Shown here in pieces: positions 3,304-16,326 of a DNA stretch of 17,693 bases (positions within the stretch are counted from its first letter, which is position 1; every line of letters starts with the position of its first letter). The translations under genes were made by a program, and so were the position numbers. The notes beneath the pieces are model-generated. The model saw nothing but the letters and a program-made list of their open reading frames with translations. It ran no database searches and was not told the origin of the DNA. The DNA is from Nannocystis pusilla. GTDB taxonomy: Bacteria; Myxococcota_A; Polyangia; Nannocystales; Nannocystaceae. The DNA lies in contig NZ_JAIRAU010000002.1 of the NCBI RefSeq assembly GCF_020073745.1, positions 1 through 17,693 of the forward strand, written 5' to 3'.

Positions 3304-3532
3304 TCAGAGGGAGTTGACTGCTCAGTCGCGTGGGCACCTGAACAACCTCCGGGATACTATGCACAAGAAGCTCATCCTCCCGTACCGCTCGACTCCCCGC
3401 TGGGAAGGAGAGCGGGACGCGTTCATCCGGGGCCACTTGTGATCACGGGTCTTTCGCGGTGGCGGATGATGCTGCCAAACCGAGCGCCACAGCCAGAAGA
3501 CCCACCGCAAAGCTCCCAGCGGTTGAATACCC

Positions 3533-4408
3533 ATGTCTCAGACACAAAATATGATTGAAGAATACTTCCGTGCGAAGACGCAGGAGCTCCTTGCTGCCGC
3601 GAAACTCCCAGTGACTGATCACGGGGGACTACGTGGGGTCCACCGAGAATTGGTCGTGGATCGTTTCCTGTGCGAAGTCCTTCCTCGCCGTTTTGAAGTG
3701 GGGCATGGTCAGGTACACGGGGTTGTGCATCGAAGTCGGGAAGCCGACGTCATCCTTTGGGACGCTCTGAATTACCCGAGGCTCCAACTTCGAGGCTCGA
3801 CGATCTTCTTCGCCGAGTCCGTCCGCGCATCCATCGAAGTTAAGTCTCGCTGGAGTGTCGAAGAATTGGACGACATTTTGGTGAAAACAAAAGCTCTCAG
3901 GGATATTGTGACTGCTCCGCGGATAAATATTGACGATGCTCTGCAGCGAATGCAGCTGGATATTGCCTACCTCGCAGGAGGACCGGCTCCGACGGGAGCT
4001 CTGGCTGTTCAACATCGTATCGGCACTGCCGGTTTCGTATTCTTCGGAGGGCAAAGGTTCGAGCTGAAGGATGTCAAGGCAGAGACTATGGATCATGCTG
4101 ATGATTGCTGGCCCGACGTTTTACTCTTCCTTGAGGCCGGCATTGTAGTTCTCAAGGAATGGGAGGAGCGCGAAGGGCTGGGGGGTGGTCAGGGGGAATT
4201 GCTTCGCTTCGATCTTGGCGCAGATGCCCTCCTTTTCTTCACCGACGCTCTTCTGCGTGGACTTGTTGCACGTTCGGTGTTTGTGGAAACACCACTCGAC
4301 TTGGCAAGTTACCAAATTCCTTCGCTGCACTCACAGCCGGTTGAGCGAGTCTCCTTCCGCCTCACTCGACCCAACCCAGGTCGCAGGTATTTCTTCGATG
4401 ATGAGTAG
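3533..4408 (+). CDS. Predicted PD-(D/E)xK-fold nuclease-like protein (resembles DUF6602-type proteins); foreign codon usage
   Basis: A 291-aa ORF with non-native codon usage. The N-terminal half has a restriction-endonuclease-like motif pattern: ...HRE..., a hydrophobic strand ending in Asp (ADVILWD), then an E-x-K on the next strand (SIEVKSR). An alternative start is at ATG 3551 (MIEEYF...). No clear SD is present. Confidence 0.7.
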   Translation: MSQTQNMIEEYFRAKTQELLAAAKLPVTDHGGLRGVHRELVVDRFLCEVLPRRFEVGHGQVHGVVHRSREADVILWDALNYPRLQLRGSTIFFAESVRASIEVKSRWSVEELDDILVKTKALRDIVTAPRINIDDALQRMQLDIAYLAGGPAPTGALAVQHRIGTAGFVFFGGQRFELKDVKAETMDHADDCWPDVLLFLEAGIVVLKEWEEREGLGGGQGELLRFDLGADALLFFTDALLRGLVARSVFVETPLDLASYQIPSLHSQPVERVSFRLTRPNPGRRYFFDDE

Positions 4409-4410
4409 GC

Positions 4411-4431
4411 CGCCTCCCCTGCGAGGAGGCG
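4411..4431 (+). terminator. Hairpin immediately after the stop codon of the nuclease-like gene (7-bp GC stem, 7-nt loop, no U-tract)
   Basis: The sequence cgcctcc-cctgcga-ggaggcg lies directly downstream of TAG 4406-4408. Confidence 0.4.
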
Positions 4432-4551
4432 TTCGCCAACGGACGACTGCTCGTGCAAGATAAGATGGCTATCGATGAACAATGGATAAACGAGGCGGCT
4501 TTAAAGCCAATATGCCGGGGAAATGCTGTTTGGACGAGCCCGGACGGACGC

Positions 4552-4572
4552 CGGTGTTGAGTAGCAACACCG
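4552..4572. promoter_or_regulatory. Perfect 8-bp stem / 5-nt loop hairpin (cggtgttg-agtag-caacaccg) in the AT-richer right border of the islet
   Basis: The inverted repeat was read directly in the sequence. Its function is unknown. Confidence 0.3.
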
Positions 4573-5081
4573 CTTGATATTCCCCTAATGAGAGGTACAT
4601 CGAGCAAGCCAACGCTGAAGCGTGCTTCCTCACCCGACGCGAGCTCGAGATACTGTCCTGGCTGGACGTCGCTTCCGCGAGGAAGATCGAGCCGGCTGAG
4701 CGAGGTCGGCGTGATTGGCGGTCGTCGCACGCGGCGCTCGACCAGGCGGCGGGACGACCGGGGCGACCATCAGCTGCAGCAGCGACTCGAGCGGCTGCGG
4801 CGCCATCGGGTCCTGGACGGCGATCGTCTCGGTCCCTTTGCTGCGCAGGGTGAACTCGAGGCGCAGCGGCTCACCCGCAAGGATGATCTCGTCGACCTGC
4901 AGGCGCGGTCCAAGCGCGCGTCATGTCGTCCGCCTGCGGGCACGAGCCCGCATCCCACCAACCCCACGAGGATTCGCCTGACCGGAAAGCGGTTCCTAGC
5001 CCCCAAGCAGGGGCCTGGCCGCTCAGTGTCCCCTCTGTCGACTGTTTCCGGCCCCAGACAGACTGCGCTATTCTGCGCGTC

Positions 5082-5270
5082 GTGGCGCGCTCCGTCACCC
5101 TCGCCGCCGTCGCCTTGATCGCCACCGCCTGCGACGGTGGCAGCGGTCAGGAGACGGGTTTCGGCTCGAGCCTCACCACGGCGCCGCCGGGGACCAGTTC
5201 GATCGGTTCGCCATTCGCGGACGCGAGGTCGTGTTCGCGGCGAATGATGGTCCCGACGACGGAACCGTGA
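5082..5270 (+). CDS. Possible small lipoprotein (63 aa, GTG start)
   Basis: GC3 rises sharply from about 5070. The product MARSVTLAAVALIATAC|DGGSGQE... has a positively charged n-region, a hydrophobic core and a lipobox-like IATAC. There is no SD, the start is GTG, and the C-terminal half is unconvincing. Confidence 0.25.
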   Translation: MARSVTLAAVALIATACDGGSGQETGFGSSLTTAPPGTSSIGSPFADARSCSRRMMVPTTEP

Positions 5271-7517: not shown

Positions 7518-8651
7518 TCAGAAGCGGCCGGTGAGGTTGAACAGGGCGCCGCGAGGGCTCGGGCGCAGGGCGAACGACAGGCGCTTGCCGAGGTCGCTGC
7601 GGTGGAGGGTGGGCACGAGGACGCCGATCGAGGTGCCGGCGATCGAGCCGGCGATCACATCGGTCCAGAAGTGCTTGCCGGCCTCGACGCGGAGGAGCGC
7701 GGTGGTGGCGGCGATGCCGATCGCCGCCAGCCACACCGGTACGGCGGCGCGCGCCCGCGAGTGACGCAGGGTGAAGATGGTGGCCCAGGCGGTCATCATG
7801 GCGAAGGCGGTGGAGGCGTGACCTGAATAAAAGGACAGGCGCGCCTCCTCGTCGCGGATGTCGCCGAGCGAGTTGTCCTGGTCGTAGCTGTAGGGGCGCG
7901 GGCGGCGGACGGCGTACTTGACGAGGTTGGTGAGGCCGACGTTGACGGCGAGGACCTGGAACAGGACGACGACGTCGCGGGCCCAGCCGCCTGCTGCCCG
8001 GCGGTAGGAGCCGGGGGCGCGCCGGCCGGTGACGAGGGCGTCGGCGAGGTCGGCGACCAGCGGGGCGGCGATGGCGGTGTAGAGCAGGGCGTCGGAGGCG
8101 TGGGCGGCCGCCGGGTTGTCGTTGCCGAGGACGCGGCGGTCGAGGCCGTTGATCCGCGAACGATCGCAGGCGGCGCAGCCGGCCCAGCTCGAGTCCCTGG
8201 CGGCCAGGTCGCTGCCGAGCCACAGGGCGAGGCCGAGGCCGATGACGGGGACGTCGATCGCGGGCCGGATCCGCATGAGGTGCGGCGGGAGAGCGGGCGG
8301 CGCGGGAGCGGATGGTGCGGCGGAGATGTCCTCGGGGGTATGTCCCGAGGGCGGGGCGGGCTGTTGCGGGGAGGTCCCGGGCGGGTGCGCCGCGGGCGAC
8401 GGGGTGGAATTGTGCGAGATGTCCTCGGGGACATGTGTGGACGCGGGCGAGGCGTCTGTGGGTGGCCTGTCTTGAGGAGCATGTCCGGAGGGACCGACCG
8501 AGGGCGCCCAGGCGTCGAGCGGCGCCAGGGCGGGCGGGGCGGAGGCGTCGGGCGCGAGGGAGAGCGCGACGCGGCCGGGGACGAGGGGATGCGCGGCGAC
8601 GGGCGGCGCGAGGAGGGCGACGAGCAGGGCGGAGAGCAGACGGCGCGACAT
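7518..8651 (-). CDS. PAP2-family (type 2 phosphatidic acid phosphatase-like) membrane/periplasmic phosphatase with signal peptide and Pro-rich repeat linker
   Basis: PAP2 motifs KYAVRRPRP, YSGHAS and RVEAGKHFWTDVIAG are present. The N-terminus, MSRRLLSALLVALLAPPVAA, is signal-like. An alternative start is at 8687 (MHVKSRHTRRTR...). The Pro-rich segment contains a roughly 93-bp-spaced direct repeat (PEDIS...). Confidence 0.85.
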   Translation of the reverse strand: MSRRLLSALLVALLAPPVAAHPLVPGRVALSLAPDASAPPALAPLDAWAPSVGPSGHAPQDRPPTDASPASTHVPEDISHNSTPSPAAHPPGTSPQQPAPPSGHTPEDISAAPSAPAPPALPPHLMRIRPAIDVPVIGLGLALWLGSDLAARDSSWAGCAACDRSRINGLDRRVLGNDNPAAAHASDALLYTAIAAPLVADLADALVTGRRAPGSYRRAAGGWARDVVVLFQVLAVNVGLTNLVKYAVRRPRPYSYDQDNSLGDIRDEEARLSFYSGHASTAFAMMTAWATIFTLRHSRARAAVPVWLAAIGIAATTALLRVEAGKHFWTDVIAGSIAGTSIGVLVPTLHRSDLGKRLSFALRPSPRGALFNLTGRF

Positions 8652-8728
8652 CCGGGTGCGGCGAGTATGCCTGCTCTTCACATGCACGGGAACGGGGCGC
8701 TGCCGTACCCTGCCCAGTCTTGGCGCGC

Positions 8729-8998
8729 ATGCGGCAGCTGCTCCGCGAGCTGGCGGAGACGATCGAGGACGACGAGGAGGACGCCGACGGCGAGGGGCCG
8801 AGCGGGCGCGGGCAGTACGACGTGCGCGGCTTCGATCCGGGGAAGAAGGCCATCCCGCTCAACAGCGATCCGTCCGGCGACCTTTACTTCCGGGCGACCG
8901 CGGCGAAGTCGGGGGCCGAGACGCGGCGTCTCGCCGTTGCGCGGGGGCTCGGGCGCCGAAGCAGCGACCGCGTCTCAGGGCCGAGTTGCGGGAAATGA
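8729..8998 (+). CDS. Small acidic hypothetical protein (90 aa) whose 3' end is the founding copy of the downstream 64-bp tandem repeat
   Basis: GC3 is about 90% over the ORF. The product is MRQLLRELAETIEDDEEDADGEGPSGRGQYDVRGFDPGKKAIPLNSDPSGDLYF...GRRSSDRVSGPSCGK*. It is divergent from the PAP2 gene. No SD was recognised. Confidence 0.5.
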   Translation: MRQLLRELAETIEDDEEDADGEGPSGRGQYDVRGFDPGKKAIPLNSDPSGDLYFRATAAKSGAETRRLAVARGLGRRSSDRVSGPSCGK

Positions 8999-9300
8999 CG
9001 AGGCCATGAGCCGCGGGCGCCGAAGTCGCGACCGCGTCTCAGGGCCGAGTTGCGGGGAATGACGAGACCATGATCCGCGGGCGCCGAAGCAGCGACCGTG
9101 TCTCAGGGCCGAGTTGCGGGGAATGACGAGACGATGAGACGCGGGCGCCGAAGCAGCGACCGCGTCTCATGGCTGACTTGCGGGGAATGACGAGACCATG
9201 AGCCGCGGGCGCCGAAGCAGCGACCGCGTCTCAGGGCCCTCGAGCGCGGGAATGATGAATGACGAGACCACGACGCGCAGGCGCTGAAGCAGCGGGCGCG
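8951..9300. repeat. Tandem array of a 64-bp unit (5 near-identical copies at 8951, 9015, 9079, 9143, 9207, plus a degenerate sixth)
   Basis: The unit gggcgccgaagcagcgaccgcgtctcagggccgagttgcggggaatgacgagaccatgagccgc repeats with a period of exactly 64 bp at about 90% identity. The whole unit repeats and there are no unique spacers, so it is not a CRISPR array. Each copy contains ATG-(17 codons)-TGA encoding MSRGRRS(S/R)DRVSGPSCGE. Confidence 0.9.
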
Positions 9301-9512
9301 TCGCGGCGTGAGCGTGACGAGGCGGGGGCCGTGACGCGCGACCGGGTGGCGCGGAGTGCCGTTCCCAAGATCCAGACCTGCGACGGTGCGCTCGATAGGA
9401 TGAGCTTGCACGTGCGGCCTGCACCCGGCACTCGCGCCTGTGCTGGCGGTGGGCGAGACGAGAGCTCGCCAGGCCAAACCCGGCCGCGTTCGGACGGCGG
9501 ACCCGCAGGGGG

Positions 9513-10145
9513 TCACACGTCCTGCACGTCGAGCTGCAGGCAGGTCGACGTGTCGATGTACACGACCTCCTCGAGGGCGACGGGCTCCAGGTCGGGACGA
9601 TCGATGTCGATGGGCTGGAAGTCGGGGCGGTCGATGGGCTGGAAGTTGGGGCGGTCGATGGGATTGAAGTTGGGGCGGTCGATGGGGTTGAAGTGCGGGC
9701 GGTCGATGCCGGGGCGGTCCCACGGGCCGAAGCCGTGCCAGGGGCCGAGGCCGGGCCAGGGGCCGAAGCCGCCCAGGCGGGTCGTGAGCTCGCTGGGCGC
9801 GCAGAACAGCGCGCCGCCGTCCTCACACTGGCTGCGGCAGGTCGCCGCGCGGTCCTCGAGCTCGCCGGCGCACTGGGCCAGGCAGACCGGGCCGGTCAGC
9901 GCGCCGCAGTCGTAGGCGCGGTCGTCGGTGCCGGTGCCGACGAAGATCTGGGTCTGGACGCACGCGTCGAGGGCGGTGGCGCCGCCCAGGTCGATGCCCT
10001 GCTCCGGGTTCTTGCCGACCGGCTCCCACTGGCCGGGGCCGTTCATCTGCTCCGACTCGGCGGTGAGCGGACGCGCCATCGTCGGGCTGGCCGCGAGCGA
10101 CGCGATGACCAGGGCGGGGCAAACGATCAGGATATTACGCAACAT
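9513..10145 (-). CDS. Secreted Cys-rich protein with GPW and (IDRPxFxP)x5 tandem peptide repeats
   Basis: The signal peptide is MLRNILIVCPALVIASLAASPTMA. The mature part is Cys-rich. The C-terminus is IDRPHFNPIDRPNFNPIDRPNFQPIDRPDFQPIDIDRPDLEP. A purine-rich SD (gaaagg) lies 7 nt upstream of the ATG, and GC3 is high. Confidence 0.8.
   Translation of the reverse strand: MLRNILIVCPALVIASLAASPTMARPLTAESEQMNGPGQWEPVGKNPEQGIDLGGATALDACVQTQIFVGTGTDDRAYDCGALTGPVCLAQCAGELEDRAATCRSQCEDGGALFCAPSELTTRLGGFGPWPGLGPWHGFGPWDRPGIDRPHFNPIDRPNFNPIDRPNFQPIDRPDFQPIDIDRPDLEPVALEEVVYIDTSTCLQLDVQDV
9606..9715 (-). repeat. 24-bp tandem coding repeat (about 4.5 copies) inside the secreted-protein gene
   Basis: The unit gtcgatgggctggaagt(c/t)ggggcg repeats and encodes the octapeptide IDRP(D/N)F(Q/N)P on the minus strand. 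Confidence 0.85.
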
Positions 10146-10582
10146 GGGGAGTACCTTTCTTCTCTTCCTGCTTCTCTCGGTGGCGGCGTGGGATGATTCC
10201 CTCCGTCGCGCCGTGTAGGACTATTCAGCCCGTTCAGACCGTGGGCAATGCCGAGTTGTGGCGTATCGCATACTCGTGGGGGCCTCGATTTGGCGTAGGG
10301 GCCGGCGTGCCCCGGCGCATCTCGGGGAATCCGCGGGTTCGCCTCGATCGGGCAGGAACCCGGCGGCGGCGCCGTCTGCGGCGGTTTTGCGGCGCTCGTG
10401 AGCAGATGTCGCCGTCGTCCGCCGCGCTCGCACATTGTTCATAGCCCTGCGACCCGGGCAGGGCAATTTCGAGGCCGTCCGTCGATTCGAGGAAAGTACT
10501 ATGATGATTGATGAAGCGGCGCGGTCGCGGCGGCTCGCGGAGGGCTCCGCGCACTTTTCGAGTCGGCGGCCGGGAGAGCTCC

Positions 10583-10610
10583 TATGATTATATACAATGT
10601 GCTATTTCTC
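10583..10610. promoter_or_regulatory. Isolated AT-rich box (tatgattatatacaatgtgctatttctc) with -10-like TATACAAT in an otherwise GC-rich 950-bp gene-free region
   Basis: This is the most AT-rich 30-mer in the window. TACAAT at 10593-10598 matches 5 of 6 positions of TATAAT. No convincing -35 element is present, and the direction is unknown. Confidence 0.3.
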
Positions 10611-11019
10611 CTCACAAGTCGCGGACGCTGCGACATTGATGATTCGCCGCGGCGCCGTCGGCAGCGCCGCGGACGACGGAATGCGTCGAGCGGCGCGCCG
10701 TTCGACGCGCCGATCGATCGATCGGGGCAGGGGCGTCGCGCGCGTCCGAGGAGCGCCTCGGGGGGCGCCGCGCCGGCGGACGCGGGCCGGCAGTGGCGAG
10801 CCCGCCCGCTCGCGGCACGAGCTCGGCTCGCCCGTGCAATCGGCGGCGCCGACCGTCGGCAGCAACCCTGCAGCAGGAGGACGCTCGGCAGCGCCTGGCT
10901 GCCGACGTCCGCCGTGGCGTCTCGCTCGTCGATCACGCTCCGCTGACTGACCCCGATCGCGGCCGCGGTCACGCCGGACGGATACCGATCGACGAGGAGC
11001 TGGACAAATCAGAGAAGGA

Positions 11020-11098: not shown

Positions 11099-12948
11099 TC
11101 AGGACTGCGGCTCGGAGGCTCGCTCGGCGGCCCATCGATCGAGCTCGGGCGCGGACGGGACGAGCGCGCCGAGGGCCGCGATGAGCGGCTCGAGCTCGCC
11201 ACGCCTGCGCTCGTCGGGCATCTGCAGGCGGAGGCCGCCGCCGAGCTCGGTCATCGTGATGTGGTCGGGCAGCCTAGCGCGATCGAGCCGCGCGGCGTGG
11301 CTGGTCGACATCCAGATCCGGCGGTCGATCCCGCGGATGTGCGTCTCGTGCCAGGCCGCGATCTTGAGCGGCTCATCGTTCCCGCCGAGCGTGATGCTCT
11401 CCCAGCGCGTCGTGTCGTCCGGGCGGTATTGATGCAGCTCGAGGAGCGCGGAGTAGGCGGCGCCGGAGCGGATCGCCTCGTCGCAGATCGCCTCGAGTCG
11501 GGCGATGTCCGCGACGTGATCCGCCGTCCGGTCGTACGCGGCGAGCACGAGCTGGACGACGAGCTGATCCCGTGCGTCCATCGATCGCGGCGGGTAGCCG
11601 AAAGTGCCGAACAGGTAGGTCGAGCCAGCGACCTGAAACGGCGACTTGGGGCCGGGCATGAATTCAGTGACACGGTCGAGGGGAGGGGCGCCCGCCTCCT
11701 CGCGCTCGTGAAAGACGACCTCATGGTCACGCTCGATGCGGAGGCTCCCGTCGCCGTGCGCGGTGCGCCACGCCTCGACGTGCCGGCTCGCCCACGCCCA
11801 CGCCCACGCGAGCGAGCCACGCAGGGTGATGTGCGCGCTCACGTGCTCGCGGTGATGCATGGCGAAGAGGGCGTAGTTGCCGATACTGCTGTGCGTGAGG
11901 CTCGGTCGCCACGGCTTCCATATCACCACGAGCTCGAGGCTGCCGGACGTATGCGAGCCATCGCTCGCGATCTCCGCGACGAGCTCGCACTCGCCTTCCT
12001 TGAGCGTGCGGTACTCGAGATGGAGGGGCCACATGCGCTTGTCGGCGAGCACGCGTGCCCGCTCGGCTTCTCTCCGGCCCATCGAGAACGTGTCGGGCTC
12101 CTCGACGAACCCCGGCGGGATCGCGATCTTCGCGTCGCCCCAGGCGTGCGGCCCCTCGGGTACGAGCTCGAGCCTGTCGCTCTTGCACGAGAGCAGCTCG
12201 ACGAAGCCCTCCGCGATCCCACTGCCCGAGAGCCGGATCGTCAGGCCGCGCCCGGGGCCGCCGACGCTGCGGACCTCCAGGAATTGCTTGCAGACCTCGC
12301 CCTCGAATACGAGGTGCCGCGATCCCCAGCTGCGGTTGCTGCCCCAGTCGACGTGGAACGCGGGGTCGCCGGTCTGGTCACGCGGCGTCCATGCGGCCTG
12401 CTTTCGGCGCAGCGCGATCGTGGTGCCGCGCAGCGCACGCTCCCCGAACATGTGCTCGACGGACAGGCCGAACCGCTCCGCGGCGACGGCGAGCGCCGTC
12501 TCGGGGAAGATCTGGATGAGCCCGTCGGCGAACGCCCTGGCGAGCTCGTTGGCGTGCCCTTCACGAGCAGCGGCTCGACGTGCTTCTTCGCCGGCCTGCG
12601 CTCGCCCCCGCGGGCCCACACGCCCGCCGGCTTCCCGTCCGCATGGAGGCCGAGCCGGACGATCGCGCTCGCTTCGCAGTACGCCTCGAGGACGGGCAGC
12701 TTCGTCGCCTTCGACACCGCCTGGGCGATCGCCGCGGCCTCGTGGCCGTCGTCCTCGATCGTGAGCCAGGGCGACTTGCCGCCGAGGCGGATCACGCGAT
12801 CGGCACCGCGAGTTCGCGTGATCCGTTCGTACCCCGCCTTCTTCGCGTACGCGAGGACGGCCCGGACGACCCGCTCGCGCTGCCGCTCCGTCGGCGCATG
12901 GACGTGGAGGTTGTGGAAGTTCTGGCTCATGCGAAGGCGCCCGAGCAT
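11099..12948 (-). pseudogene. Hypothetical protein (about 615 aa), reading frame broken by a 1-nt frameshift near 12555-12560
   Basis: The N-terminal 125 codons (MSQNFHNLHVHAPTERQRERVVRAVLAYAKKAGYERITRTRGADRVIRL...HVEPLLVKG) are in one frame with about 95% GC3. The remaining roughly 490 codons (HANELARAFADGLIQIFPETALAVAAERFGLSVEHMF...ERASEPQS*) continue in the -1 frame. The junction is at minus-strand GTGAAGGG|CACGCC, which corresponds to + strand 12551-12564. Both halves turn to junk beyond the junction in their own frame. Confidence 0.7.
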
Positions 12949-13060
12949 ACACCGCGAACGCGACCCCCCGGGCGAGGGCGCGGTGCAGCGACGCGACGTG
13001 CAACGCGTCGGGGGCCGCAGACGATCAGCTCGTCACACTCATGGGCGTCGCCGAGGTCGG

Positions 13061-13145
13061 ATTCACATGCGGCGATCCTACATGTGCTCCGGCCCGACGT
13101 GCATGCCCGCGTCGCGCGCCGGCGCGCCATCGCCACCGCACATGA
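13061..13145. promoter_or_regulatory. Divergent intergenic region with three CACATG hexamers (13064, 13081 as CATGTG, 13139), five CATG cores and a 14-bp GC palindrome gcgcgccggcgcgc (13114-13127)
   Basis: The motifs were read directly. A/T-containing hexamers like CACATG are rare in this composition. The region lies between the frameshifted gene and the lipoprotein gene. Confidence 0.3.
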
Positions 13146-13216
13146 GGTCGCCACTCTCGGTTAGAATGACCGTCGCAGGGCCTGTCGAAGGTCCTGTCCC
13201 GCAAAGGTCCCCCCCC

Positions 13217-13918
13217 ATGAGAAGAGCCTTCCTGTGCGCACTGATCGTCGCCGCCACCACCTCCTCGCTCGCATGCGACGCGGTCATCGCGGCGCAGTCC
13301 AAGGACCAGCCCGTCCCTGAGGAGCCCGCGGCGATGGCGGCCGTCAAGGTCCAGGCCGACGTCGACGTCCAGCTCAAGCCCGAGGTGCTCGACCTCGAGA
13401 CGGTCAACTACTTGATCAAGAAGGGCAAGGTCAAGGACGCGGAGGCGCTCGAGAAGCAGCTCAACAACCCGAAGGAGAAGCTGCACAGCATCGACATCGA
13501 CGGCGACGGCAAGCTCGACAAGCTCCAGATCGTCGAGGTCAAGAAGCCGAACGACGAGATCGTGTTCGAGCTGCACGTGATCCCCTCGTCGAAGAAGGAG
13601 AAGGACAACACCCTGATCGTCGCCTTCATCGACTTCGCGCCCGACAAGACGACGAACACCCTCGTCGTCAAGGCGACCTACGCGCCCTGCGTCGTCGGCC
13701 ACGACACGATCGTGTATGACTACAACGTCCCGATCGTCGTCCAGAACGACACGATCGTGGTCACCGGCGGTCCGGCGTTCTACGGCTGGCTGTTCGCGGT
13801 CCGTCCGGCCTACGTCGGCGTCATCGTCATCGATGTCCCGACCGTGCATATCCACAAGCACAAGCACAAGCACAAGGGCAAGTGGAAGGGCAAGGGCAAG
13901 GGCAAGTGGCACTGGTGA
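13217..13918 (+). CDS. Lipoprotein with DxDxDG Ca-binding-like loop and His/Lys-rich cationic C-terminal tail
   Basis: The N-terminus is MRRAFLCALIVAATTSSLAC (lipobox SLAC). The loop is DIDGDGKLDKLQ. The C-terminus is HIHKHKHKHKGKWKGKGKGKWHW. SD-like aaagg is followed by a C8 tract before the ATG. The gene occupies the 3' third of the long 11261..13918 + ORF; the rest of that ORF is antisense shadow. Confidence 0.85.
   Translation: MRRAFLCALIVAATTSSLACDAVIAAQSKDQPVPEEPAAMAAVKVQADVDVQLKPEVLDLETVNYLIKKGKVKDAEALEKQLNNPKEKLHSIDIDGDGKLDKLQIVEVKKPNDEIVFELHVIPSSKKEKDNTLIVAFIDFAPDKTTNTLVVKATYAPCVVGHDTIVYDYNVPIVVQNDTIVVTGGPAFYGWLFAVRPAYVGVIVIDVPTVHIHKHKHKHKGKWKGKGKGKWHW
13853..13912 (+). repeat. Coding hexanucleotide microsatellite (CACAAG)4 followed by (GGCAAG/TGGAAG)5 encoding the HK/GK tail
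   Basis: The repeat was read directly. The in-frame 6-bp period means slippage would preserve the frame and change tail length. Confidence 0.8.
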
Positions 13919-16326
13919 TGGGCCACGCCGATCCGTCTCGAACCTCGAACGGACTGTGGGAGCGGGTTCGCGAGAAGAAGATCGCGGCGGCGCTCGGTCG
14001 CCCGCCCGATCCGCCTCCGGACCTCCAACTGATCCGCGTCAGCTGCGAGGTCGCTCCCGCTGCGCTGCGACCGCTCCTCGAGGCGCGGCGGTTGACCGAG
14101 GCGATCCTCGGCGAGACGCGGCCGAGGCCGGAGCGGAGCAAGCTGCGGGCGCGGACGCTCTTCGGTGAGACGCCCGAGCGCGCCACCGAGGTGGTCGTCG
14201 TCGAGCTGTGGAATCAGCTCGCCCAACAGAAGGGCGCGCGCTGGGTGGTGGTCTTCGACGCGGTGGAACACGCCGACAAGGCGACTCTGGCGGCGCTGAC
14301 GCAGATCGTGCAGCGGGCGGAATGGGTGCGACTACCGCTGCTGCTGGTGTTTCACAGCGAGCCGAAGGAGGCGGCGGCCGACTTGCTCGCGGCCGTGCGC
14401 GGGCGCGACGCCGAGGCCGTGATCCGCGGCGAGCAGCCGCGCGTCGGTGAGGCGCAGCGGATCGAGTGGAACGCGTTGCCCGCCAAAACGCTCCGCGTGC
14501 TGCGAGCCGGGGCGTTGATCGGCCCGGGCTTCGAGCTCAAGATCCTCGCCGATCTGCTGGCGCTCGAGCCGCTCGAGGTGCTCGAGCAGCTCCAACACGC
14601 CGTGGATCTCGGCGTCCCGATCGAGGATCGCGGCGAGGGACGGTTCTCGTTGCCGGCCTCCGCCCTCTCGGCGCTGTCCGCGTCGATCATGCCGTCGCTC
14701 GCGCAAGCGTGGCACCGCCAGCTCGGGCGACTGCTCGGCGGGCGCGTGGCGAAGGTGGCGGCACCGCCCCCGCCTCCGCCGAACGCGGCCAGGATCGCGA
14801 CGATCCGACGGGAGAGCATCGGCGATGCTCGCGTGGCGGAGATCATCGACATGTCCGACGAGGTCAGTGATCTGGCCGATGACGCGTCGAGCGCCGCGCA
14901 GGCCGCCTCCGCTTCCGCCGCCAGCCCGCAAACCCCGGAGATCAGCCCGTCCGAGCACGACGAGAGCGGATCGCCTGTCCCGAGGGACATCCAGCCTTCG
15001 GGCTCGAGCGCCGCGGCTCCGCACGCGCCTTCCAAAGCAGTGGTTCAGCGCCGGACCGTGGTGGCAGCGCCGGCCCGAGGCGCGGGAGCGCCGGTGCGTC
15101 CGAGGACGTTGCTCCTCGCGCCGGACGTCGACTTGCCGGAGCCGGCCGAGTGGAGCTCGTCCCCCAGGACCGGGGCGACCGAGCTCGATGACCCGCTGGT
15201 CGACAAGGTGCGGGCCGCCGAGCACATGCGCCTCGCCGGCGACGCCGAGGCAGCCGCGGCGCACCTGTGCGAGGCAGCGCGCACGGCCGCGGAGATGGGG
15301 GCGCCGCAGGTGGCGGCGCAGCACGTGAACGACGTGCTCGAGTTGCTGGCGACGCTGCCCATCGGCGCGTCCCGGCAGCGACTCAGGGCGCGGGCGCTGC
15401 TCGAGCGCGGGCGGCTGCAGTGGCAGGCGGCGGGCTACGAACACGGGTTCACACTGGCCCAGGCGCTGGTTTCGCTCGAGGCGGCGCGCGCAGAGCTCGG
15501 GCCGGATGCGCCGGTCGACCTCGCGGTCGATCTGGCGCAGGCCCTGGCAGGCGTGTATTTCGAGCTGGGCGACTCGCATGCCCTCGCGCGGGCGCTGGCG
15601 GAGATCGAGGAGGCGAGCCGAAAGTTGCAGACCGCGAACGACACGATCGGGGCGGCGTGCCTGTTCAACGATCAAGCCGCCGTGCGCGTCCGGATGGGCG
15701 ATGCCGCGAGCGCGCTGCAACTGCTGCGCGCGTCTCGTGCGATCTTCGACGCGCGGGGCCAGGACGACCACGTGGCGCTGCGCGAGCTCGCGGAGACGGA
15801 GCACCTGTTCGCCAAGCTACCGCTCCATGCCCGGATGCGCCTGGGGCGCGAGGAAGAGGGCTACGCGATCGGCCTCGAACACGCGCTCGCAGCAGAGCGC
15901 GCCTATGGCGAGCTCGAGGATCCCCGCGAGCTCGCGCGCGTGTGGGAGACGATGGGTCGACTCGAACTGAAGCGCTGCCGGATCGAGGAGGCGAGGCAAC
16001 GGCTCGAGGCGGCGTTCGAGACGCAGACGCGGATCGGCGACCTGACCGGCCTGGCGCAGACGACGGAGCTGTTGTCGGAGGTGCTCGCCTGGTGCGGCCG
16101 CAACGACGAGGCGGTCGCGATGCTCCGCGACTCCGTGGTGTTCAACCGCGACAAGGGGTCCCCACGCGGGCTGATCTCCAACCGCCAGGCGCTCACCGCC
16201 CTGTCGTCGCGCTTCGCAGCGCTGCCGAAGCACGCGGAAGGTCTCCGCGAGGTGGAGATCCTGCTCGCGGCCGGCGAACGCGAGCTCGGCGTGCCGGCAC
16301 GGACGGACACTCAAGGCATGACCTGA
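13918..16326 (+). CDS. STAND/MalT-like helical plus winged-helix region lacking a recognisable Walker A, followed by an acidic Ser/Ala-rich linker and C-terminal TPR-like repeats (802 aa)
   Basis: The start ATG overlaps the stop of the upstream lipoprotein gene (TGATG at 13916-13920). WVVVFDAVEHADKATLAALTQIV is Walker-B-like. LLLVFHSEP and ...LRAGALIGPGFELKILADLLALEPLEVLEQLQHAVDLGVPIEDRGEGRFSLPASAL match the arm and winged-helix pattern of MalT/AfsR/LuxR-type STAND NTPases. No GxxxxGK[ST] is found in the 100 aa upstream. The C-terminal 350 aa are TPR-like helical repeats. Confidence 0.8.
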   Translation: MGHADPSRTSNGLWERVREKKIAAALGRPPDPPPDLQLIRVSCEVAPAALRPLLEARRLTEAILGETRPRPERSKLRARTLFGETPERATEVVVVELWNQLAQQKGARWVVVFDAVEHADKATLAALTQIVQRAEWVRLPLLLVFHSEPKEAAADLLAAVRGRDAEAVIRGEQPRVGEAQRIEWNALPAKTLRVLRAGALIGPGFELKILADLLALEPLEVLEQLQHAVDLGVPIEDRGEGRFSLPASALSALSASIMPSLAQAWHRQLGRLLGGRVAKVAAPPPPPPNAARIATIRRESIGDARVAEIIDMSDEVSDLADDASSAAQAASASAASPQTPEISPSEHDESGSPVPRDIQPSGSSAAAPHAPSKAVVQRRTVVAAPARGAGAPVRPRTLLLAPDVDLPEPAEWSSSPRTGATELDDPLVDKVRAAEHMRLAGDAEAAAAHLCEAARTAAEMGAPQVAAQHVNDVLELLATLPIGASRQRLRARALLERGRLQWQAAGYEHGFTLAQALVSLEAARAELGPDAPVDLAVDLAQALAGVYFELGDSHALARALAEIEEASRKLQTANDTIGAACLFNDQAAVRVRMGDAASALQLLRASRAIFDARGQDDHVALRELAETEHLFAKLPLHARMRLGREEEGYAIGLEHALAAERAYGELEDPRELARVWETMGRLELKRCRIEEARQRLEAAFETQTRIGDLTGLAQTTELLSEVLAWCGRNDEAVAMLRDSVVFNRDKGSPRGLISNRQALTALSSRFAALPKHAEGLREVEILLAAGERELGVPARTDTQGMT

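Follow-up and report, generated by a model that had tools for sequence, protein, structure and literature searches.

A palindromic tandem array, probably a minisatellite, beside a gene remnant in Nannocystis pusilla

Genes and repeat units of the locus

The window, i.e., the whole stretch of Nannocystis pusilla DNA analyzed here (17,693 bp, 69.4% GC), carries a tandem array flanked by two convergent reading frames. A gene on the minus strand (7518-8651) encodes a PAP2-family phosphatase of 377 aa (Pfam PAP2, E 1.9e-21; GC3 0.92), whose product is 100% identical to an NCBI Nannocystis pusilla protein, and was used as the anchor for retrieving related loci. The N-terminal region of this phosphatase (8290-8440, minus strand) is proline-rich and of low complexity, with a repeated ..TPEDIS../..VPEDIS.. 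motif, and its ortholog in Nannocystis radixulma is annotated as 56 residues shorter (321 versus 377 aa), probably reflecting the call of a different start. Divergent from the PAP2 gene lies an ORF annotated as a "hypothetical protein" of 89 aa (8729-8998, plus strand), made up of 66 codons of a gene remnant and 23 codons of the array. Beyond the array and a non-coding stretch of ∼200 nt, a gene of 210 aa is found on the minus strand (9513-10145, GC3 0.96), with an N-terminal signal-peptide-like stretch and internal coding repeats of 24 and 18 bp. The corresponding protein is 100% identical to an NCBI N. pusilla protein and 79% identical to its N. radixulma ortholog, and an ortholog is also present in Nannocystis sp. 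SCPEA4. The in-frame repeats of this gene comprise 4.3 copies of a 24-bp unit (9606-9708, octapeptide PIDRPNFN/PIDRPDFQ) and 2.9 copies of an 18-bp unit (9720-9771, GFGPW-type); as N. radixulma has 5.2-6 copies of the 24-bp unit and SCPEA4 has 6.3, this protein also varies in length among genomes. A hexamer run is found farther along the window (13853-13911, CACAAG four times, then CAAGGG six times), at the overlap of two long plus-strand ORFs (11261-13918 and 13882-16326).

The array was detected by TRF at 8950-9238 with a period of 64 bp (4.5 copies, 91% matches, score 501), and its edge copies extend to about 8922 and 9320. A repeat search located a 46-nt core six times (starts at 8929, 8993, 9057, 9121, 9185, and 9257; spacings of 64, 64, 64, 64, and 72 nt), with 70-100% identity to the reference copy, and a 25-nt core, GCGCCGAAGCAGCGACCGCGTCTCA, occurs five times at ≤2 mismatches versus 0 times in 200 shuffles. 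The TRF period, the six core copies and the shuffle test show the array to be real and non-random. Its size here is that of one draft assembly, in which an array of ∼350 bp can be mis-sized by short reads.

All units are in direct orientation (the minus-strand matches simply reflect the palindrome described below), and the copies bear distinct substitutions. Four full units, W1 (8993-9056), W2 (9057-9120), W3 (9121-9184), and W4 (9185-9256), were delimited by TRF, the repeat search and nhmmer (E 1e-16 to 7e-19), W4 reaching 72 nt owing to an extra GAATGAT(G). On the distal side lies a partial unit, W0 (8922-8992), which is 70% identical to the reference core and has a deletion junction inside; it matches the unit HMM (nhmmer) over model positions 21-63 only, at 8949-8991, and, read by eye, lacks the AATGACGAGACCATGA segment, about 16 nt of the unit. 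The gene-proximal terminal unit, W5 (9257-9320), is diverged from W1-W4 and conserved across species, based on pairwise identities and alignments. The first-pass annotation had reported five near-perfect copies and a decayed sixth: the array itself stands, but only four copies are good (86-93% mutual identity), the distal one being 70% identical over the 46-nt core and the proximal one diverged and placed after a 72-nt interval. A 19-nt direct repeat, 89% identical between its two copies, flanks the whole array, one copy lying within the gene remnant (8907-8925, AGTCGGGGGCCGAGACGCG) and the other just past W5 (9320-9338, AGGCGGGGGCCGTGACGCG); it may be due to chance, or represent microhomology used in rearrangement.

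Each unit (64-66 bp across genomes) consists of a ∼41-nt imperfect GC-rich palindrome, CCATGAGCCGCGGGCGC-CGAAGCA-GCGACCGCGTCTCAGGG, with about 17 pairs and 3 mismatches, followed by a linker of ∼23 nt. Folding the unit as RNA, a check proposed along with the initial description, gave a hairpin for every single unit, with energies of -20 to -34 kcal/mol on either strand (-20 to -31 kcal/mol for W1-W4). Among eight units from the window and N. radixulma, 79% of the stem cells pair, which equals the shuffled expectation, and a single pair shows a double change; in the absence of covariation above shuffles, the palindrome may persist simply as sequence. Minus-strand RNA of the array is more structured than its shuffles (z = -3.3), unlike plus-strand RNA (z = -1.2). 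The C variant of the W-type units, located in the apical, loop-closing stem, gives U-G in minus-strand RNA versus C-A in plus-strand RNA. This fold asymmetry favors the minus strand, the one that encodes the 210-aa protein. There, UCUC(G/A)UCAUUCC comes after each stem and is the unit's most T-rich part (UCUCGUCAUUCC); a scan of 8500-9700 for promoter and terminator consensus sequences returned neither promoters nor terminators. A canonical intrinsic terminator was thus rejected: the stem is present, but the UCUCGUCAUUCC tail is not a U-tract, and the region contains no predicted site. We also discarded the reading of TGGCGCGGAGTGCC (about 9348-9361) as a sigma-54 promoter, its GG-to-GC spacing being 2 nt too short when inspected by eye.

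Counterparts in related genomes

Positions 9119-10791 of the window align at 88% identity to positions 3387-5071 of the N. radixulma locus (L001), where three 66-bp units are found (4894-5091). In N. radixulma, about 215 nt separate the array from the stop of the 214-aa gene orthologous to the 210-aa one, and the other end of the array lies 76 nt from the stop of a convergent 67-aa gene. Two 65-bp units (7869-8000) are present in the locus of Nannocystis sp. SCPEA4 (L047), with the same gene order as in N. radixulma and a like distance of about 215 nt from the ortholog. The three genomes thus have the array on the downstream side of the 210-aa gene, and the copy number at this one locus is about 5.5 in the window, 3 in N. 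radixulma and 2 in SCPEA4. Such variation, seen across three genomes with one value each, fits the hypervariable minisatellite that the first-pass annotation had listed among its options. The more distant homologs of the 210-aa gene in Nannocystis exedens, Nannocystis bainbridge, and one metagenome contig are not accompanied by an array.

Units resemble each other more within than between genomes, except for the terminal pair. W1-W4 are 86-93% identical among themselves and the first two N. radixulma units (R1 and R2) 93%, versus 71-82% between window and N. radixulma units when the orthologous terminal pair is excluded. The terminal units W5 and R3 are 93% identical to each other, and either of them is 68-75% identical to W1-W4. 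This pattern is, at the sequence level, the concerted evolution expected of a minisatellite. The W4 linker resembles, by eye, the N. radixulma type (..GCGCGGGAATGAT), which suggests that expansion added copies of derived units on the distal side. The array thus displays the hallmarks of minisatellites, or VNTRs: head-to-tail units in the ∼10-100-bp range, copy numbers that differ between genomes, and internal units that are alike next to diverged edges.

The ∼200 nt between the array and the stop of the 210-aa gene (9306-9512, minus strand) form a non-coding stretch that is both conserved and structured, with counterparts in N. radixulma (L001, 4680-4893) and SCPEA4 (L047, 7655-7868). Windows of 60 alignment columns starting at 9287, 9317, 9346, and 9376 (about 9287-9435) are 95-100% identical to N. 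radixulma; most of the adjacent downstream coding sequence is 82-92% identical, and the stretch is almost unchanged in SCPEA4. For 9262-9512, which includes most of W5, the minus-strand fold scores z = -4.06, versus +0.37 for the plus-strand fold. A consensus fold of the stretch over the three species contains 91 pairs and no compensatory change, and an Rfam scan of 8000-10500 gave no match at E ≤ 1. This stretch is probably a 3′ UTR or a small RNA of the minus strand.

The distal side of the array is where the window departs from its relatives. The 89-aa ORF (8729-8998) does exist and terminates within the array, as initially described, but it has neither conserved full-length homologs nor a coding bias over its whole length. 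A protein search matched solely the ORF itself (100%, an NCBI Nannocystis pusilla protein). Its GC3 is 0.95 over the first 66 codons (8729-8926) and 0.74 over the 23 array codons (8927-8995), so that the strong coding bias previously ascribed to it holds for the former and not for the latter; nor is the protein, which had been called acidic, notably so, with 16 D+E versus 15 K+R overall. Positions 8722-8923 of the window are 94% identical by blastn to positions 8357-8558 of the N. radixulma locus, and 84.5% identical to positions 8722-8923 of the locus (L002) from a complete genome labelled N. pusilla. These counterparts lie inside a gene of 444 or 439 aa that is divergent from PAP2. Residues 273-405 of the 444-aa protein match the Pfam family SMI1_KNR4 with 25.2 bits, just below the cut-off of 25.4. 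The window thus retains a remnant of a C-terminal SMI1/KNR4 (SUKH-1)-like domain (8718-8927, plus strand; residues about 314-380), truncated on both sides, with homology to the SUKH-like gene stopping in the alignment at about 8927. A segment of 46 nt (8672-8717) falls outside the blastn alignments to both loci, and the locus from the complete genome (CP185339) also contains a tandem repeat of its own (12837-13428, 150 bp × 3.9, 78% matches), inside a called 259-aa gene downstream of PAP2.

Two segments found in N. radixulma are missing from the window. The first, of ∼3.3 kb (L001, 5088-8356), contains the gene of a 67-aa zinc-ribbon protein, two DUF2589 genes, a 203-aa gene, and the 3′ end of the SUKH-like gene; the second, of ∼1.2 kb (L001, 8559-9797), corresponds to the first ∼313 codons of the SUKH-like gene and upstream DNA. 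Taking SCPEA4 as the reference, the window's genome likewise lacks the ∼3.3-kb and ∼1.2-kb segments. Since the SUKH-like gene is intact beside PAP2 in N. radixulma and in the complete genome, and SCPEA4 has a called gene of 444 aa in that position, we take the state of the window as derived. The annotated 89-aa protein is a pseudogene fragment, with a reading frame that by chance continues into the repeats. Amplification of a small gene's 3′ end, as claimed initially, does not survive this comparison: the ORF is what is left of part of a 439-444-aa gene, and the array is present in relatives that have this gene intact, 3.3 kb away, which indicates that the small ORF reads into a pre-existing array. 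A deletion breakpoint within an array is one more case of repeats marking sites of rearrangement.

Mini-ORFs within the units

The plus strand of the array contains short ORFs, whose ATG is found 7 nt after the preceding TGA, as originally reported. The statement that every copy keeps an 18-codon ORF applies to three copies (starts at 9006, 9070, and 9134), but the fourth ORF has 29 codons, and in W5 an ACG replaces the ATG. Each ORF was also said to encode MSRGRRS(S/R)DRVSGPSCGE; the three 18-mers were found, but they differ in sequence (MSRGRRSR.., MIRGRRSS.., and MRRGRRSS..SWLT..). The homologous ATG of N. radixulma and SCPEA4 opens MTRGR* in four of their five units, a TGA being present where the window has CGA, and the remaining unit reads through into the next one. 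The conserved terminal unit of the window, W5, has the early TGA as well, which suggests that the T is ancestral and that the 18-codon ORF arose recently, as a side effect of a single substitution that spread across the units.

The proposal of a peptide-array locus, with each unit as an independent cistron for an 18-aa arginine-rich peptide, draws on the three ATG...TGA ORFs of 18 codons and on the G-rich stretch upstream of each. Yet the relatives' units mostly stop at MTRGR*, the conserved terminal unit of the window has ACG in place of the ATG, and the GC3 of the mini-ORFs (0.72) is close to the window average of 0.69, versus 0.92-0.96 for the neighboring genes. Changes between copies, counted by eye, are about six that alter the peptide (S to I, S to R twice, G to W, P to L, and S to T) and about two that are silent. 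Moreover, the GGGGA motif lies 11 nt ahead of the ATG, far for a ribosome-binding site, the ORFs are on the strand opposite to the gene accompanying the array, and their ATG belongs to the palindrome (CCATGA/TCATGG). This reading is largely refuted by the lack of conservation, and a peptide array seems very improbable to us; judging from these comparisons of sequences, we conclude that the mini-ORFs are not genes.

Known repeat systems and the origin of the array

The array seems confined to this lineage in the DNA that could be searched. The unit HMM found no copy beyond the arrays themselves in the window and seven other Nannocystis-derived loci, the exact 25-mer core had 0 matches in 185,579 species-representative genomes, and a strict unit pattern common to both species had 0 matches in metagenomes. 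A loose tandem pattern matched 38 times in metagenomes, all matches being unrelated by nhmmer and most of them on lower-GC contigs, and blastn against plasmid and phage collections gave no match to the array. We found nothing relevant in the literature on tandem repeats or minisatellites of Nannocystis or myxobacteria. Unrelated arrays are present in N. exedens (L003, 698-968; 53 bp × 5.1, 94% matches) and N. bainbridge (L006, 1257-1548; 65 bp × 4.5, 89% matches), both in the same intergenic region between the genes of a Methyltransf_32 protein and a 2-hydroxyacid dehydrogenase, with no evident similarity to the unit of the window or, by eye, to each other. In a relative from a metagenome (L008), this intergenic region spans only about 185 nt and contains no such array. 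Intergenic minisatellites thus appear to be recurrent in the genus.

Several described repeat systems share features with the array. The MIRU-VNTRs of Mycobacterium are intergenic, head-to-tail repeats of 40-100-bp units in a high-GC genome, and resemble it by internal GC-rich inverted repeats, small ORFs within units, and copy numbers varying between related genomes (PMC3184786). However, MIRUs occupy ∼40-50 loci per genome, versus a single locus in the DNA searched here, and they are located within operons, where the ORF of a unit overlaps the stop and start codons of its neighboring genes; the present array has convergent flanking genes, no downstream gene on the ORF strand, and ORFs that are not conserved (5 codons in relatives). 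With REP/BIME elements it shares the location between convergent genes, an imperfect GC-rich palindrome and a proposed role in mRNA 3′-end stability (PMC3184786), and its palindrome (∼17 pairs, 3 mismatches) is of the kind that defines them, i.e., about 20-40 nt, imperfect and GC-rich. REPs are nevertheless dispersed in hundreds of copies, whereas the array is confined to one locus in the DNA searched. BIME clusters alternate in orientation, in contrast to the array, where every unit is direct. Like Rho-independent terminators and the SPRITE elements of Streptococcus pneumoniae, the array places a GC-rich stem-loop past the 3′ end of a gene, but it has no U-tract, the consensus scan was empty, and it is tandem at one locus and not dispersed. 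Regularly spaced palindromic repeats are also a feature of CRISPR; here, the "spacers" are themselves repeated, and no cas genes were found among the subset of window ORFs scanned with Pfam. As the whole 64-bp period repeats, a CRISPR array was rejected, in agreement with the first-pass annotation, which had noted the lack of unique spacers.

We consider that the array is probably a non-coding, lineage-specific minisatellite, arisen by tandem duplication of the VNTR type. The alternative that deserves most attention is a selected RNA element of the minus strand, derived from a 3′ UTR or an independent small RNA, in which hairpins would bind a protein or set stability and copy number would tune the effect. 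It is consistent with the 95-100% conservation of the neighboring ∼200-nt stretch and its strong structure on the minus strand only, with the minus-strand z of the array itself, and with a position that is constant in three genomes. On the other hand, unit sequence and copy number change freely, compensatory changes and an Rfam family were both missing from the results above, and the N. exedens and N. bainbridge homologs of the 210-aa gene do without an array, so that we regard such an element as unlikely. A composite of both features, in which the repeated hairpins and the 9306-9512 stretch together make up, in the N. pusilla/N. radixulma lineage, an undescribed RNA element derived from the 3′ UTR of the 210-aa gene, with the number of hairpins setting stability or termination efficiency and the array acting as a fragile site that promoted the 3.3-kb deletion, strikes us as slightly less likely again.

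The remaining explanations are weaker. The array might belong to a dispersed family, be it a cluster of REP/BIME-like or MITE-like elements or one locus of a MIRU-like multi-locus VNTR family, as an imperfect GC-rich palindrome between convergent genes is found in many REPs (PMC3184786); but the unit HMM detected nothing beyond the arrays themselves in the window and these seven further loci from Nannocystis, the exact core was absent from species-representative genomes and metagenomes, the units are all direct, and neither terminal inverted repeats nor a target-site duplication were recognized, which makes this improbable. Direct repeats that each contain an inverted repeat also resemble plasmid partition sites such as F sopC, and a centromere-like or iteron-like array, each inverted repeat binding a dimeric protein, could be imagined on that likeness. 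Since no partition or replication genes occur among the ORFs scanned, the context is chromosomal with no plasmid or phage match, and SCPEA4 has only 2 copies, we give hardly any credit to a DNA-level function of this type. An assembly artefact might be suspected from a draft contig where the ∼350-bp array exceeds typical short reads, but it is highly implausible given that two further genomes, assembled independently, have homologous arrays in this position and that the copies bear distinct substitutions.

Under the preferred reading as a minisatellite, the gene-proximal unit W5 would be the old, conserved, ancestral copy, and the array would have originated from a single hairpin module ending the conserved 3′ stretch of the 210-aa gene. 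Slipped-strand mispairing or unequal recombination may have supplied the extra copies and homogenized them. A deletion of ∼3.3 kb with one breakpoint inside the distal unit would then have joined the array to the fragment of the SUKH-like gene, and a second deletion, of ∼1.2 kb, would have taken the 5′ end of that gene. The frame of the fragment, remaining open by chance for 23 codons into the array, would have given rise to the annotated 89-aa ORF, and the mini-ORFs would stem from the CCATGA...TCATGG palindrome, a GAATGA, and a T-to-C change removing the early TGA. We hold this structural and evolutionary account of the locus to be likely, with good confidence. As for function, the hairpins might by analogy act as structures at the 3′ end of the 210-aa gene's minus-strand transcript, a tentative proposal to which we would give rather less than even chances; if the array is functional, they could be terminator-like or protect that transcript from exonucleases, in the manner of REP hairpins.

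For the annotation of Nannocystis genomes, which is where the relevance of the array mainly lies, these results indicate that a deposited N. pusilla "hypothetical protein" is a pseudogene fragment read into a repeat. More generally, an ATG...TGA periodicity in a palindromic minisatellite should not lead one to infer peptides. Strain typing in Nannocystis could use the locus as a VNTR marker, and the conserved 9306-9512 stretch, in our opinion the most interesting residue of the locus, would be a modest candidate for a new regulatory RNA.
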